This document shows positions 41,368-46,720 of a stretch of 64,000 nt of DNA, one piece after another. A model generated the notes under the pieces. The model did no database searches. It saw nothing but the letters and a program-made list of their open reading frames with translations, and was not told where the DNA came from. The DNA is from an uncultured Acidimicrobiaceae bacterium. GTDB lineage: Bacteria; Actinomycetota; Acidimicrobiia; Acidimicrobiales; RAAP-2. Where the stretch lies: the NCBI GenBank assembly GCA_963807775.1, contig CAWECY010000004.1:475873-539872 (forward strand), given 5' to 3'. Made by a program: the position numbers and the translations under genes. Numbering within the stretch: the stretch's first letter is position 1; each line of letters opens with the position of its first letter.

Positions 41368-43491
41368 TCAGCGGTCGTTCAATAGGCTCCGACACAGCGA
41401 CATGTCCGGCGCCTTCGTGTCAACTCGCACCACCGTGACCACTGGTTGCTGACCAGTCGGTGTCGCCGCCGAGTGAACTTCGACCGCCGCCCCGAGCTGA
41501 GACCCCGACAGGACACCGCTTAAGGCAGTGAGGATGCTGCCCACCTGGACGTCCGCGATATGAAGAATCGAATTGGTCTCCACGTGGAGGACGTACGGGT
41601 GTCCGATCTTCGGTACGAATTTCGCCCCGATAATCGGGTAGTGGGGGTCGTGGAGCACGAATCGGACGCTGCCGCCACCAGACGCGCGGATGGAGATCGT
41701 GTCCTTACCGGCCGAGACAATGGGAACGGAGGTGCCAAGTCTCATAGGGGCGTTGAACGTCACTATGAGTTTGGTCTCAAGGCCGGAGCCCTGCTCCACC
41801 GGAATCCACGTGTGGTGTTCTGCTTGCAAGATTGGATCGGTATTGAAGTGATCCCCCGAGGAAAGGTAGAGGCCCGCACAGTCACCGATGATGTACACGT
41901 CGTTCGCGGGTGCCCAATAGGGGAGCGTCGTGGCGTGCTTGAGCTGCTTGTCGTAGGGGTGCCCCGTGACGTCGCTGATCGCTTTGACTGTCTTGATGTA
42001 GTTGGCGGCTTGAGCTGGGAGCCATTCAGTCGTCGGAGAGAAGGCAAGGGCGATGTTGACGGCCATGCTGAAAATTCCGAACACCACAAGTGCCGTAACA
42101 GCGACCCGCCTCACCGCCACGCCGCGATGTTCCAGCCATCCCCACGTTGCAATCAGCCCGATCGCTCCGCCCAGGACAAGGAACGGAAGAAAGTCCCCCA
42201 GATAGCGCGGAGCAATGTATCCCAATAGGAAGTCGACGGCGGTTCCACCGGCAGCCACGATGAGTGGGATCCGCATCAATGTCGCCCCTCGACGCGCGTG
42301 TGGGCGGAAACAAATTACTAAGGCACAACAGCTGAGAAGGAAGAGCAGCGGCATTGAGGCTGGCACGCTGGGAGTCGGGTACAGGACGTCGATGATGTAG
42401 CCGCCGAACACATGAGGGGGCTGCACCGGCAGGGCGAAGAACGGAAAAGTCGGTTGGAGTCGTAGCCCGAAGGGTTGGAAATATGCCCACACGTTTGTGG
42501 GAATGAGGTGAAAGCTGTAGCCCTTTTCGCCAGTGGCGGTCAGAAAGGCCCGCCGATGGGCATTCAGCTGGGTCCACACCTGGTGAGCCAGCGGCAAACC
42601 GTTGAGCAAGGTCCCGAATTTCAGCCAGTTGACAAGGACAGAGACAAGGAAGGGAACCACTGCGATCGCGACCATTGAGGGAGCCCAGCGCCGGTGTTGC
42701 ACTGTGCTACGACCGAAACGGAACCGTCCGGCAATGAGAATGGCACCGACGATGCACGCCAGCGCCGGCGTCGGACGGTCCAGGACGCCAGCCAGAATGA
42801 GTGCGCCTGCGGCCAGTACCCGATGCTTCGTCGGATGATCGAGAATTCCGATAAATACGAAGAGTGTGGCGATAGTGACCGGAATGGACCACGCAATGTC
42901 TTCGTTGTAGACCCAAGGTGCCGCCGCCAGGAAGAGAAGAACAGAGCCGCCCAGGATCGTGGCGACAAGAACTCCGACTGAGACAGCCTCCCCCCATCCA
43001 AGCAGCGCCCCGCCTCTCAGCAGCACCCGAACGCGCCAAATGAGCAGACTGGAAAAGAACCCCGTGAAGAGCCAGGCCACGAACATCGACGGGGCAGTAA
43101 GTCGGCCGTCCAGCGATGGAATTACGAGGAGAATCGGGATCCGGAACAAGGACGGGAGCAGACCGAAGTAGGTGTAGGTCCGTCCGTCATGGATGAACCC
43201 CTCGATGCCGAGCCGTCCTGTTGGTACCGAGAGGTGACCGTGGATCATCGCCTCGGCCTGGAGATCGTAGAAGTTGGCGAAGAATGATACTGACCGCAAG
43301 GGTTTGACCGTTCCCGACCACTCGTCCGTCAGTATCCAGATGCACGGGACAGCTGCGATGATGGCGCCGATGAGCGCAGCATACGTAAAACGCTTCTTGT
43401 TGCGTTCCTCGCCGCCGCCGCCGCCGCCGCCGCCGCCGCCATCATCGAGTGCGGTGGGCTGGGTGTCCTCCTCAAACGCCACCGCAGACAT
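41368..43491 (-). CDS. Large polytopic membrane protein, family A paralog 1 (putative GT-C-fold glycosyltransferase with a C-terminal extracytoplasmic domain)
   Basis: 707 aa with more than 10 predicted TM helices. First loop FYDLQAEAMIHGHLS...LGIEGFIHDGRTYTYFGLLPSL. The beta-rich C-terminal roughly 200 aa are non-hydrophobic. By eye it is about two-thirds identical to 44537..46720. Confidence 0.7.
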   Translation of the reverse strand: MSAVAFEEDTQPTALDDGGGGGGGGGGEERNKKRFTYAALIGAIIAAVPCIWILTDEWSGTVKPLRSVSFFANFYDLQAEAMIHGHLSVPTGRLGIEGFIHDGRTYTYFGLLPSLFRIPILLVIPSLDGRLTAPSMFVAWLFTGFFSSLLIWRVRVLLRGGALLGWGEAVSVGVLVATILGGSVLLFLAAAPWVYNEDIAWSIPVTIATLFVFIGILDHPTKHRVLAAGALILAGVLDRPTPALACIVGAILIAGRFRFGRSTVQHRRWAPSMVAIAVVPFLVSVLVNWLKFGTLLNGLPLAHQVWTQLNAHRRAFLTATGEKGYSFHLIPTNVWAYFQPFGLRLQPTFPFFALPVQPPHVFGGYIIDVLYPTPSVPASMPLLFLLSCCALVICFRPHARRGATLMRIPLIVAAGGTAVDFLLGYIAPRYLGDFLPFLVLGGAIGLIATWGWLEHRGVAVRRVAVTALVVFGIFSMAVNIALAFSPTTEWLPAQAANYIKTVKAISDVTGHPYDKQLKHATTLPYWAPANDVYIIGDCAGLYLSSGDHFNTDPILQAEHHTWIPVEQGSGLETKLIVTFNAPMRLGTSVPIVSAGKDTISIRASGGGSVRFVLHDPHYPIIGAKFVPKIGHPYVLHVETNSILHIADVQVGSILTALSGVLSGSQLGAAVEVHSAATPTGQQPVVTVVRVDTKAPDMSLCRSLLNDR
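43411..43440 (-). repeat. (GCC)10 trinucleotide repeat encoding Gly10 in the N-terminal tail of family A paralog 1
   Basis: Thirty nt of perfect GCC repeat, counted directly. Translated as DDGGGGGGGGGGEE. Absent from the paralog. Confidence 0.95.
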
Positions 43492-44536: not shown

Positions 44537-46720
44537 TCACCGGTTCACGTCTTCGAGCAAGCTGCGGCAAAAGCCCACGTTCGAGGGCGTCGCCGTGGCA
44601 TCCGTCACAGTCATAGGAGGAATTACTCCGCCTCGCTCTGGATCGGTCTGCTGGACCACTGCAGTGCCGCGACTGGGCAAGTACGTTCCCGACCGAGTAG
44701 TTACCTCGCCCCTTGTTCCCTCCCACCAAACCACTATTCGGTTGAGATTCGGATCAGTCCACACGAGAATTGTGTACGTCTTGTGGGGTGCAATGGCCAC
44801 AACCGGACTGGTCGCGGGGGGCCAGGGAATATGAGGAGCATCCGGGTCCTCGACCTTGAAAAGTACCCGTTCGTGCAAGAGAGGCTCCACGACAAGCGTC
44901 GCATCTCCGTAGGTCAAGATGGGAGCGGTCGGTCCCGGCTGTACGGGTTGGTTAAATGTCACCTCGATCTTGTGGACAATCCCTGGGCCCTGTTCGATAA
45001 CGTCCCAATTATCGTGCTGGATCTGCAGTCCCGGTGCGTAGGAGAAATTCTCGCCGGTTGACAGATAAGCACCAGTGCAATCGCCGACGACATAGATATC
45101 TCCTGCAGGGGCCCAATAGGGGAGCGAGGACACCTGTCTAATCTGACTAGCCAGTGGGTGCCCCGTGACGTCGCTTATGGATTTAACGGTCTTCACGTAG
45201 TTGGAGGTCTGTGCCGGGGACCATTGCGGGGTCGGCGTAAGAGCGATCCCGATATTTATGGCGACGCTCAGGAGGCCGAGAAGAATCACGACGACCATCG
45301 CGAGTCGCGTGAATCGTGGTCCGCGTTCCTGCAATCGCCCCCACACTGTGATGAGTCCGATGGCTCCACCCAGAACAAGAAATGGCAGGAAATCACCCAA
45401 ATACCTGGGAGCGATATATCCCAACAAGAAGTCGACGGCGGTACCAGCCGCGGCGACGAGGAGAGGAATTCTCATCAAGATCGCTGCCCGGCTCGCTCCT
45501 CGGCGAAAACAAACGACCATTGCGCAGCAGCTCAAGAGGAAGAGCAAGGGCATCGATGCAGGGACGCTCGGCGTCGGATAGAGGACATCGACGACGTAAT
45601 TGCCGAAGACGTGAGGGGAATGCACTGGGAGAGTGAAAAACGGGAATGTCGTCTGAATCCGCAGCCCGAATGGTTGCAAGTACGCCCATAGAGTCGTGGG
45701 CAGGAAGTGGAAGCTGTAGCCGTTCCCACCAGTAGAAGCAAGAAAAGCGCGGCGGTGGGCGCTTAATCGGGTCCAGACCTGTGTTGCCAATGGCAGGCCA
45801 TTCAACATGGTTCCGAACTTCAGCCAATTTACGAAAATCGATATCAAGAAAGGGACGATCCCCACTCCCAGCATGGGAAGGGCCCACCGCCGATGTTGCT
45901 CCTCGGTGCGACCGAAACGGAACCATCCGGCGATGAGGACGGCGCCGACGATGCAGGCCAGGGCAGGAGGTTCGCGACCAAGTACGCCAGCTGTGACCAG
46001 CAATGCTGCAGCTAGAACCCGACCTCTCGTTGGGCGATCAAGCACACCAAGGAACACAAACAGCGTGGCGATAGTGACCGGGATAGACCAGGCGACATCC
46101 TCGTCGTACACCCACGGTGATGAGGCCAGAAACATCAGAATCGATCCGCCCATAATCGACGCCATCAACACGCTGAGCGCCACCGCCTCGGTCATTCCGA
46201 GTGAGGCGCTGCCCCTGAGGAGTATTCGCACTCGCCAGATGAGGACTGACGAGAACAAGCCTGTGAGGAACCAGGCCACCAATATCGATGGGGCGGTGAG
46301 GTGACCCGCTGCGTGAGGGACCACCAACAGAATCGGAATGCGGAGCAGAGATGGAAGCAGACCAAAGTAGGTATAAGTCCGTCCGTCGTGGATGAACCCC
46401 TCGATTCCGAGGCTTCCTTTAGAAACCGACAAGTGGCCGTGGATGATTGCCTGCGCCTGCAGGTCGTAGAAGTTGGCGGGACTCACGGCTCTGAACGGAT
46501 TCGGGCTGCCGTTCCAAAGGTCCCATAGGATATAGAGATAGGGGAGGGTCACCAGAGCCATCCCAACGATTGCGGCCATGGTAAAGCGACGGCGGCTGCC
46601 GTCGGCCCGCACGAACCGACCAATCTCAAGTGAGGTTTCGGTCTCCTCTAACGACGTTTGAACCGTCAACATCGTTGAGAGTTTCGCATCTGAATCACTA
46701 GGAGGTACATCGGCACGCAA
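44537..46720 (-). CDS. Large polytopic membrane protein, family A paralog 2
   Basis: 727 aa. It shares long identical blocks with paralog 1: LGIEGFIHDGRTYTYFGLLPSL, DVLYPTPSVPASMPLLFLLSCCA and GTAVDFLLGYIAPRYLGDFLPFLVLGGAIGLI. The C-terminal domain is much more divergent. Confidence 0.7.
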   Translation of the reverse strand: MRADVPPSDSDAKLSTMLTVQTSLEETETSLEIGRFVRADGSRRRFTMAAIVGMALVTLPYLYILWDLWNGSPNPFRAVSPANFYDLQAQAIIHGHLSVSKGSLGIEGFIHDGRTYTYFGLLPSLLRIPILLVVPHAAGHLTAPSILVAWFLTGLFSSVLIWRVRILLRGSASLGMTEAVALSVLMASIMGGSILMFLASSPWVYDEDVAWSIPVTIATLFVFLGVLDRPTRGRVLAAALLVTAGVLGREPPALACIVGAVLIAGWFRFGRTEEQHRRWALPMLGVGIVPFLISIFVNWLKFGTMLNGLPLATQVWTRLSAHRRAFLASTGGNGYSFHFLPTTLWAYLQPFGLRIQTTFPFFTLPVHSPHVFGNYVVDVLYPTPSVPASMPLLFLLSCCAMVVCFRRGASRAAILMRIPLLVAAAGTAVDFLLGYIAPRYLGDFLPFLVLGGAIGLITVWGRLQERGPRFTRLAMVVVILLGLLSVAINIGIALTPTPQWSPAQTSNYVKTVKSISDVTGHPLASQIRQVSSLPYWAPAGDIYVVGDCTGAYLSTGENFSYAPGLQIQHDNWDVIEQGPGIVHKIEVTFNQPVQPGPTAPILTYGDATLVVEPLLHERVLFKVEDPDAPHIPWPPATSPVVAIAPHKTYTILVWTDPNLNRIVVWWEGTRGEVTTRSGTYLPSRGTAVVQQTDPERGGVIPPMTVTDATATPSNVGFCRSLLEDVNR

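Follow-up and report, generated by a model that had tools for sequence, protein, structure and literature searches.

Introduction

Glycosyltransferases (GTs) of the GT-C fold build and decorate cell envelopes, and they include the targets of ethambutol (the Emb enzymes) as well as determinants of serotype. Here we describe two neighbouring genes, A1 and A2, in a stretch of 64,000 nucleotides from an uncultured Acidimicrobiaceae bacterium (GenBank assembly GCA_963807775.1, contig CAWECY010000004.1, positions 475,873 to 539,872). This whole stretch is called the window below, and it is numbered from its first letter. A1 and A2 belong to an unnamed family of membrane proteins, and we propose, with a probability of about 0.65, that they are lipid-linked-sugar-dependent glycosyltransferases that tailor a glycan of the cell envelope. 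Our confidence in the glycan acceptor and in a specificity role of the C-terminal domain is lower than our confidence in the fold.

The GT-C-A class is defined by transmembrane (TM) helices 1 to 7 and by two juxtamembrane helices (JM1 and JM2) that stand between the first two of them; an Asp at the tip of JM1 is essential for catalysis, and TM3 is typically kinked (PMC12041299). The fold is shared by the mycobacterial arabinofuranosyltransferases AftA, AftB, EmbA/B/C and AftD. AftB has 11 TM helices, its TM7-TM8 loop is structured, a periplasmic cap follows at the C-terminus, and Arg residues hold the phosphate of its donor (PMC12041299). The Aft/Emb enzymes occur as several paralogues per genome, which differ in linkage specificity, and carry outer domains of carbohydrate-binding type; carbohydrate-binding modules (CBMs) are known on Emb, on AftD and on the founder of family GT136 (PMC11127046).

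A second group of systems has three components: a cytoplasmic synthase makes a polyprenyl-phosphate sugar, a small flippase exports it, and outside the cytoplasm the finished glycan is decorated by a GT-C enzyme (PMC11127046). GtrA/GtrB/GtrC of Shigella and Salmonella, CsbB/GtcA/YfhO of Gram-positives and ORF12 of GT136 belong here. GT136 is also the precedent for a GT-C enzyme that has a CBM and no sequence similarity to known families, and the family was founded once ORF12 had been characterised (PMC11127046). STT3 and PglB (GT66), which are catalytic subunits of oligosaccharyltransferases, use a diphosphate-linked oligosaccharide and have 13 TM helices. Clusters of gtr genes are often phage-borne. 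In mycobacteria, arabinogalactan is decorated with galactosamine by PpgS and Rv3779 and succinylated by SucT.

Fold of the membrane core

We modelled A1 with AlphaFold2 from an alignment of 54 sequences. The model was confident (mean pLDDT 90.4, pTM 0.90), with residues 1-23 alone disordered, and it contained an N-terminal core of 11 TM helices followed, after TM11, by a mostly-beta domain of about 220 residues. As assigned by DSSP, the helices span residues 25-55, 132-159, 166-190, 194-218, 222-238, 240-259, 270-292, 381-395, 407-422, 428-453 and 458-483. The third is kinked or broken in the model (166-181 and 184-190), the TM7-TM8 loop (88 residues) is structured, and two juxtamembrane helices (74-83 and 112-123) lie between TM1 and TM2.

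When the model was compared with the Protein Data Bank (PDB) using Foldseek, the top 16 matches were all GT-C enzymes (probability 1.00, E 5e-5 to 1e-2, template-modelling (TM) scores 0.32-0.43). The best match was STT3A (8pn9_A, E 4.7e-5, TM-scores 0.39/0.42) and the second best AftA (8if8); the top set also included STT3 of the human, yeast and canine oligosaccharyltransferase (OST), PglB (3rce), DPY19 (7zlg) and ArnT (5ezm), while EmbC, EmbA-EmbB and Pmt4 appeared further down. The first match outside GT-C, the membrane protein HpnN, had a probability of 0.13. The original prediction, that the core would match no well-known family outside the glycosyltransferases, was borne out in this respect, since no sequence family matched at all and the fold matches were to GT-C enzymes.

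The model agrees with each architectural point described for GT-C-A enzymes in PMC12041299, including the JM helices, the kinked TM3 and a C-terminal outer domain like that of AftB. With AftB, A1 shares the number of TM helices, JM1 and JM2, an Asp at the JM1 tip, the structured TM7-TM8 loop and the C-terminal domain outside. STT3 and PglB, which are the best structural matches (8pn9_A as above; 3rce_A, E 6.6e-5; TM-scores 0.35-0.43), share with the family its predicted N-in/C-out topology and C-terminal outer domain, but they have two TM helices more, the family shows no STT3 match in Pfam, and the WWDYG motif was not seen in its sequence. As judged from the model, A1 and A2 very probably have the GT-C-A fold.

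Loop 1, conserved residues and topology

Conservation was estimated from 146 representatives, less than 50% identical to one another, that were aligned to a hidden Markov model (HMM) of the family; 121 of these were aligned at residue D76 of A1 (D86 of A2), the Asp of the FYDLQA motif. This residue was Asp in 107 of the 121 and Glu in 10, and was therefore acidic in 117 (97%). It is the third residue of helix 74-83, that is, at the N-terminal tip of JM1 in the model. The original prediction had placed acidic residues of loop 1 at the position of the catalytic Asp/Glu of GT-C enzymes. For the first residue this agrees with the position rule of PMC12041299, and D76 would occupy the catalytic position of GT-C-A enzymes, as placed by secondary structure. 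The second acidic residue (E80 in A1, Gln in A2) did not hold up: conservation is lacking at this position, where 86 of the 121 have Arg. The motif of the family, FYDxQA, differs from the DD motif of Aft/Emb.

Several other residues were as strongly conserved. Q78, R117, P119, E197 and W201 were found in 100% of the representatives, and E97, R239 and R429 in 99%; position 433 was Asp or Glu in 96% (D433 in A1), and Y108 is a further conserved residue of loop 1. Polar residues conserved at 95% or more fell in outer loops or outer helix halves in 15 of 18 cases, which is a modest enrichment, as 64% of positions are outer anyway. This distribution is consistent with an outward-facing active site.

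The topology is predicted to be N-in/C-out, because Lys and Arg on the short loops are in excess inside (12 inside, 2 outside) and an NKKR motif precedes TM1. By this positive-inside rule loop 1 would lie outside and not in the cytoplasm, in line with the extracytoplasmic position first given to it, and so would the C-terminal domain and the TM7-TM8 loop. Two Cys of the C-terminal domain, C538 and C700, are invariant wherever they are present, which suggests a disulfide between them, fitting an extracytoplasmic location.

The A1/A2 pair and the variable C-terminal domain

The two open reading frames (ORFs) of the pair lie on the minus strand with a methyltransferase gene between them, as the original prediction had described (Table 1). 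The peptides quoted there as shared, LGIEGFIHDGRTYTYFGLLPSL (A1 94/A2 104), DVLYPTPSVPASMPLLFLLSCCA (368/378) and GTAVDFLLGYIAPRYLGDFLPFLVLGGAIGLI (416/426), were all found in place, and so were FYDLQAEA at A1 74 and FYDLQAQA at A2 84, CRSLL near both ends (A1 700, A2 718) and the strings quoted from the divergent C-termini (A1 576, A2 585). By BLASTP the proteins are 59% identical over 687 residues (E = 0), a likeness that we take to be far beyond chance. The membrane cores had been called near-identical; the long identical blocks are there, but the cores (residues 31-490) are 69% identical, with a few blocks that are fully so. Identity fell to 56% over residues 491-570, the proximal part of the C-terminal domain, and to 26% over its distal part (residues 571-707; 32% by pairwise MAFFT alignment). 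The strong divergence expected of the last 150-200 residues is real, although it covers only about the last 137.

Each of the identical blocks contains 9-19 synonymous codon differences, and different codons are used at 59% of the identical core residues. Because the identical blocks carry so many synonymous differences, we judge the duplication to be old and the blocks to be kept by purifying selection, which was seen for A1 and for A2. Gene conversion, which was considered as the origin of the blocks, was ruled out by the same differences. A search of the window for a third copy of the family found none, leaving two copies only.

The start of A2 is more likely ATG 46672 (711 aa) than TTG 46720, because the A2 orthologue P0019 (97-98% identical, 711 aa) begins at Met17 of A2. 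We also observed a run of ten Gly in the cytoplasmic N-terminus of A1 (residues 17-26; 43414-43443, minus strand), which is of five in the 93%-identical orthologue P0001, so that its length varies.

The C-terminal domain of A1, when modelled alone from an alignment of 26 sequences, was again confidently folded (pLDDT 91.8). In Foldseek it matched the agrin LG domain (3v64, E 3.4e-4), neurexin LNS, pentraxins (PTX3), CBM66 (4b1l, E 3.5e-3) and galectin-7 (TMt 0.44), and the search with full-length A1 also matched CBM66, galectins and AbnA domain 4. These weak fold matches point to a beta-sandwich of the ConA/LamG/CBM type. The predicted LamG/ConA-like character of the domain would be unlike Aft/Emb. 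Both groups are actinobacterial and have several paralogues per genome, and an outer domain of carbohydrate-binding type would be common to them.

We then compared the distal domains of relatives in other genomes. Those of P0046 and P0062 are 51-54% identical to A2 and 18-26% to A1 (45-54% to A2 when P0040 is included), while for P0011 and P0014 the identity is 43-46% with A1 and 23-24% with A2. Overall, A1-type and A2-type distal domains are each kept at 41-54% in other genomes and are 18-26% identical to the other type, whereas the cores of P0046, P0062, P0011 and P0014 are about equally similar to A1 and A2. The original idea of a conserved catalytic module joined to a diversified recognition domain fits both the predicted sandwich fold and the two conserved types, with the catalytic part of it being our inference.

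The same pattern was seen in 60 full-length loci of family genes from related genomes, which are the basis of all counts of loci given below; 23 of them carry two or three copies of the family in a span of 10 kb. Core, proximal and distal identities were 0.54/0.43/0.29 for random pairs between genomes and 0.52/0.42/0.24 for 33 co-located pairs. The gradient from core to proximal to distal appears to be family-wide and not peculiar to A1/A2. Distal identity was lower in co-located than in random pairs (0.239 against 0.290, Mann-Whitney p = 6e-5), and also when the pairs were matched for core identity (0.238 against 0.270, p = 0.002), where both p values are rough as the pairs are phylogenetically non-independent. 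This fits neighbouring copies being retained because their distal domains differ.

On a separate question from that of the enzymatic activity, the C-terminal divergence may mostly reflect relaxed constraint, with the paralogues being redundant or differing in dosage, regulation or heterodimer formation. The family-wide gradient between random members of different genomes, the minimum of conservation at residues 601-700 across the family, and the finding that the CBM of ORF12 was dispensable for catalysis in vitro (PMC11127046) speak for this explanation. The conservation of each distal type in other genomes, the purifying selection on both genes, the significantly greater distal divergence of co-located copies and the confident folding of the distal domain in the model speak against it. 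We consider it doubtful as the main cause of the divergence and regard a difference in specificity as the better explanation, although the gradient could partly reflect relaxed constraint.

Gene neighbourhood

The features of the pair and of the genes around it are given in Table 1.

Table 1. Coordinates of A1, A2, their parts and the neighbouring genes in the window.
Feature	Coordinates	Strand	Description
A1	41368-43491	-	ORF of 707 aa; member of the unnamed family of predicted GT-C-fold membrane proteins
A1 membrane core	42022-43419	-	Residues 25-490; from DSSP of the model
A1 extracytoplasmic loop 1 (predicted)	43099-43326	-	Residues 56-131 (76 long); in the model, helices 74-83 and 112-123 and a beta-hairpin 99-106
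A1 Asp76 codon	43264-43266	-	Encodes the candidate catalytic residue at the JM1 tip
A1 extracytoplasmic C-terminal domain (predicted)	41371-42021	-	Residues 491-707; conserved proximal part 491-570 and variable distal part 571-707
A1 variable distal domain (predicted beta-sandwich)	41371-41781	-	Residues 571-707
A2	44537-46720	-	ORF of 727 aa from TTG 46720; paralogue of A1
A2 Asp86 codon	46463-46465	-	Equivalent of A1 Asp76
A2 variable distal C-terminal domain	44540-44980	-	Residues 581-727; A2-type class, 24-31% identical to A1 there
Class I S-adenosylmethionine (SAM) methyltransferase, 256 aa	43572-44342	-	Methyltransf_11, E 8.8e-9; between A1 and A2
2-oxoglutarate (2OG)-Fe(II) oxygenase, 305 aa	46941-47858	-	Prolyl-hydroxylase type; PF13640, E 1.8e-16; directly upstream of A2
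GT2-methyltransferase fusion, 512 aa	47895-49433	-	PF00535 and Methyltransf_23; two genes upstream of A2
Membrane O-acyltransferase, 449 aa	49863-51212	+	Acyl_transf_3 (PF01757), E 2e-23; recurrent neighbour and fusion partner
491-aa protein	38013-39488	-	N-terminal DxD-like domain ('TDAD', 'LTDADITF') and a methyltransferase domain

The region from 36.8 to 61.3 kb is a surface-glycan cluster, which holds, in addition to the pair, GT4 and GT2 enzymes, four more methyltransferase-domain proteins, an Acyl_transf_3 protein and large DUF6541-, DUF7657- and YfhO-like membrane proteins. Among the related loci the recurrent neighbours include YfhO-like proteins (18 of the 60), GT4 enzymes (13), WecA-like Glycos_transf_4 proteins (12) and CysD/CysN-like proteins (11). 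The methyltransferase flanked by A1 and A2 recurs in 6 of the 60, so that the sandwich arrangement noted at the outset is true of this window but local, and is not a conserved feature of the family. A neighbouring NTP_transferase, with which we tried to name the sugar, gave weak GlmU/AglF-like matches that were not decisive.

The GT2 domain of the fusion protein was most similar to AglJ (2e-18), PpgS (1e-13; at 9.5e-14 the second-best NCBIfam match), Dol-P-hexose transferase (3e-10) and ArnC (2e-4), and in the PDB to the DPMS of Pyrococcus (5mlz, E 4e-11). These best matches are all lipid-phosphate sugar synthases. The fusion recurs in 22-34 of the 60 loci, and in the window its gene is 36 nt from that of the oxygenase, on the strand of A2; we regard it as the candidate donor-making enzyme. 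The logic of the three-component systems would be matched here, with a putative GT2 of such a type, whose matches are all under the curated cut-offs, in the A1/A2 operon, and the multiple paralogues of the family have their parallel in the serotype-specific Gtr enzymes, which give different decorations. A gene for GtrA (PF04138) lies beside family genes in 31 of the 60 loci by tblastn and in 43 by HMM.

There are also differences from the Gtr systems. Searches of the window for GtrA by tblastn, with an HMM built for the purpose and run on all six-frame ORFs, and by a Pfam scan of small ORFs found none, and the GT2 carries a fused methyltransferase in place of TM helices. The 2OG oxygenase and the protein with DxD-like and methyltransferase domains are without counterpart in Gtr systems, and a search of viral contigs (IMG/VR) found no member of the family. 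From Aft/Emb the family would differ in the enzyme that makes the donor, a DPMS/PpgS-type GT2 as opposed to the decaprenyl-phospho-arabinose pathway based on phosphoribosyl pyrophosphate (PRPP), where homologues of UbiA and DprE were not systematically searched for. As compared with STT3 and PglB, the context suggests a single sugar on a monophosphate.

The PpgS/Rv3779/SucT system resembles the locus in combining a GT2 polyprenyl-phospho-sugar synthase, a GT-C enzyme and an Acyl_transf_3 protein for the tailoring of an envelope polysaccharide outside the cytoplasm. A second, weakly SucT-like type of Acyl_transf_3 was present in 24 of the 60 loci, and the SucT-type match in a related locus reached E 1.9e-21. 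However, the PpgS and SucT matches are far under the equivalog cut-offs (51 against 370 bits and 76 against 1275 bits), and the likeness is at best one between analogues.

Of all neighbours, the oxygenase accompanies the family most faithfully, in 43 of the 60 loci by tblastn or 32 by clustering. Its nearest relatives in the PDB are OGFOD1, the prolyl 4-hydroxylases (P4H) and EGLN1 (E 5e-5 to 1e-4, weak and partial). This neighbour raises the alternative that A1 and A2 are GT-C-fold protein glycosyltransferases, working in the manner of the protein mannosyltransferases (PMT), OST or DPY19, perhaps on residues pre-hydroxylated by the oxygenase. The best fold matches (STT3, PglB, DPY19) do modify proteins, and folds of the LamG, pentraxin and galectin type recognise proteins as well. 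However, the TM-scores to AftA and ArnT, which modify glycans or lipids, are equivalent, the oxygenase's partial likeness to prolyl hydroxylases says little on its substrate, and we know of no bacterial precedent for the glycosylation of hydroxyproline. Genes of polysaccharide assembly (GT4, GT2, WecA-like, Acyl_transf_3, sulfate activation) dominate the neighbourhood, and there are fusions of the family with an O-acyltransferase domain that acts on glycans and with an arabinosyltransferase of AftD type. We consider a protein acceptor unlikely, and a glycan remains our preferred acceptor.

The natural fusions were of two kinds. An N-terminal Acyl_transf_3 domain precedes the family module in four 50%-identity clusters (P0171, P0178, P0200, P0214), and in P0236 (2,175 aa) an AftD-type GT-C (PF11847, E 2e-94) and an F5/8 type C domain stand ahead of it. 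The recurrent Acyl_transf_3 fusions could also favour another job for a GT-C-like fold, for example as a polymerase or ligase of polyprenyl-diphosphate oligosaccharides, as a non-sugar transferase, or as a non-catalytic partner that presents the acceptor to Acyl_transf_3 (compare the SGNH domain of OafA/OatA). The lack of sequence homology to characterised GT-C enzymes, the missing GtrA in the window and sporadic weak matches to the EptA_B_N membrane domain (8 of 54 members, E 0.17 or worse) are in its favour. Against it stand the fold, which matches GT-C-A and not the Wzy, WaaL or SEDS types, the acidic residue at the JM1 tip and the recurrence of DPMS/PpgS-like GT2 and GtrA as neighbours; in addition, the many conserved outward-facing polar residues argue for catalysis over scaffolding. 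Such a job seems to us quite improbable, slightly more so than a protein acceptor, and we retain glycosyl transfer as the likely activity.

Homologues of the 491-aa protein occur in 23 of the 60 loci. In at least 11 loci they are of about 730 aa and start within about 250 nt 3' of a family gene (e.g. L021:12039-14234), and in L025 (9928-14151) the homologue and the family gene share one stop-to-stop frame. Genes for an adenosine 5'-phosphosulfate (APS) kinase, a CysN-like GTPase and a CysD-like PAPS_reduct protein were seen near family genes in about 11 loci (L001:17475-20268; L008:15487-16425; L069:7277-8725), which hints that the glycan may be sulfated in some lineages. In the scanned parts of the window, sulfate-activation genes were not seen.

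Proposed function

We propose the following scheme. The cytoplasmic GT2, two genes upstream of A2, would load a sugar onto polyprenyl phosphate, and the sugar may be methylated by the fused methyltransferase domain. A flippase, which in related loci could be GtrA, would move the lipid-linked sugar across the membrane. On the outer face A1 and A2 would bind the donor in a groove formed by TM1-7 and loop 1, where the Asp at the JM1 tip (D76/D86) may act as catalytic base or nucleophile and the phosphate may be held by the invariant Arg residues R117, R239, R313 and R429. As acceptor we envisage a glycan of the cell envelope, which the extracytoplasmic C-terminal domain would hold while the sugar is transferred. 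The conserved proximal part of this domain probably caps the active site, and the distal beta-sandwich, which differs between the paralogues, would give each another acceptor or linkage. Further tailoring of the same glycan would fall to the Acyl_transf_3 protein and to the methyltransferases encoded around the pair.

Several observations weigh against this scheme. Over the whole chain, the TM-scores to GT-C structures are just 0.32-0.43, and the top fold matches include enzymes that glycosylate proteins (STT3, PglB, DPY19), which makes the glycan acceptor a tentative one. D76 was placed by secondary structure, and the outer-side enrichment of conserved polar residues is small. The Foldseek matches of the C-terminal domain are weak (E 3e-4 to 1e-2, TM-scores 0.24-0.45), and folds of the ConA type bind non-sugar ligands too. 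The GT2 domain is under every NCBIfam cut-off, its protein carries a methyltransferase where many polyprenyl-phosphate-sugar synthases have TM helices, and the flippase GtrA is missing from the window.

The sequence searches belong to the same side of the balance. Pfam and NCBIfam scans of A1 and A2 gave no match at E <= 1 beyond noise, and no curated cut-off was reached, GT-C families such as PMT_2, STT3, the ArnT type, Arabinose_trans, GT-C_AftD, DUF6056 and DUF6541 included. Among PDB sequences no match to A1 or A2, and no GT-C protein, was found either by phmmer or by hmmsearch with a 54-sequence profile. When the 54 aligned members were scanned against Pfam at E <= 10, we observed sporadic weak matches to DUF6056 in 6 of the 54 (best E 2.6e-4) and to PMT_2 in one (E 0.34). 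No match of the family to PF11847 was seen, and comparison by hhalign of the family core profile (250 sequences, Neff 4.5) with an AftD-type alignment (111 sequences, built from the natural fusion partner), using shallow and deep profiles, gave a local probability of 1.0% (P = 0.054) and nothing in the global mode. This weak alignment leaves D76 unpaired with the invariant 'ADTK' Asp of AftD, and we draw no residue-level conclusion from it. A single match to PhoLip_ATPase_C (E 0.021, below the cut-off) was discarded as noise from a hydrophobic segment.

A1 and A2 are thus not members of any curated sequence family, but form a sequence-orphan family of known fold; that they could not be assigned by eye to a named family agrees with the Pfam, NCBIfam and PDB searches. 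A bolder possibility is that the family, the 2OG oxygenase and the GT2-methyltransferase fusion make up an undescribed extracytoplasmic glycosylation pathway specific to Acidimicrobiales, with a chemistry unlike Gtr or Aft. It might use a pre-methylated or hydroxylated sugar carried on lipid, or glycosylate hydroxyproline in envelope proteins, with the paralogues maybe forming an obligate heterodimer (compare EmbA-EmbB and Pmt1-Pmt2). We hold this to be very unlikely, the least probable of the possibilities raised here.

Family distribution and significance

A word-indexed search returned at least 659 members of the family, all of about 700 aa, with 94-100% coverage, no Pfam domain, and entries that were unnamed or 'hypothetical'. 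With an exhaustive profile search at E <= 1e-3 the count rose to 2,587 clusters (50% identity), and 1,014 of them reached E <= 1e-30; for ten distant cluster representatives we checked the member names, and all were unnamed or 'hypothetical protein'. Contigs taken at one genome per species contained 288 relatives, and the best 80 of these 288 (77 distinct loci) all came from metagenome-assembled genomes (MAGs) of uncultured Acidimicrobiales, Acidimicrobiaceae or 'Actinomycetes'. On present sampling the family is apparently confined to Acidimicrobiales; all named sources are MAGs of Acidimicrobiales or Actinomycetota. In the literature we found no paper linking GT-C with Acidimicrobiia and no functional description of DUF6056.

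We see in the family a new branch within a class of enzymes that is well known, and not a new kind of system or principle. A specialist would not be surprised to meet a GT-C enzyme among the orphan polytopic proteins of a glycan cluster; the assignment is useful for annotation and for envelope biology. With thousands of members and no curated model or name, every member is called 'hypothetical protein' by annotation. A1 and A2 represent a candidate new GT family, which would be founded at the level of CAZy once one member has been characterised, as happened for GT136. To our knowledge the Acidimicrobiales are an abundant lineage of soil and peat with almost no cultured representatives, and their wall chemistry is essentially unknown. 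The family would offer a first handle on the assembly of their envelope glycans. Moreover, the natural arrays of paralogues with exchangeable lectin-like domains would be a system for studying how GT-C enzymes choose their acceptors.

Other features of the window

Rfam and tRNA scans of the window were empty. A promoter and terminator scan of 40.4-49.9 kb gave nothing sensible above the shuffled expectation, the sigma-70 consensus being unsuited to a high-GC organism.

The GC content is 0.63-0.74 (mostly about 0.68) in the first 40 kb and 0.56-0.63 from about 40 kb on, and the glycan-assembly cluster is compositionally distinct from its flank, which is common for variable surface-polysaccharide loci. 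The cluster has a second pair of paralogous membrane proteins, at 51731-53734 (plus strand, 667 aa) and 55180-56769 (minus strand, 529 aa), which are about 34% identical with weak, sub-threshold matches to DUF6541; they are probably further GT-C-like enzymes of the cluster.

Some genes of the cluster appeared to be broken. The DUF7657-like ORF at 57266-58696 and the YfhO C-terminal-like ORF at 58696-59727 (both plus strand) correspond to one ORF of about 817 aa in 18 related loci and are split here over overlapping frames (stop-to-stop 57254-58693 and 58144-59724), which could be due to a frameshift, a pseudogene or an assembly error. The ORF at 59724-60104 (plus strand) encodes the N-terminal ~100 residues of a GT2 domain and is overlapped in another frame by an ORF at 59990-60613 (plus strand); the stretch 59724-60613 is probably another frameshifted glycosyltransferase gene. 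A 148-aa ORF at 53821-54267 (minus strand), which matches the first ~60 positions of Acyl_transf_3, is apparently what is left of a gene; the 1.4 kb in which it lies hold no convincing one.

In the flank, a transposase of the IS4/IS5-type DDE class (DUF4096 and DDE_Tnp_1) is encoded at 7933-8847 (minus strand). At 10873-12948 (minus strand) we observed an ORF of 691 aa with an acetate-kinase domain at residues 369-652 alone; either the ORF was called too long, or the domain may be fused to an unassigned N-terminal part.

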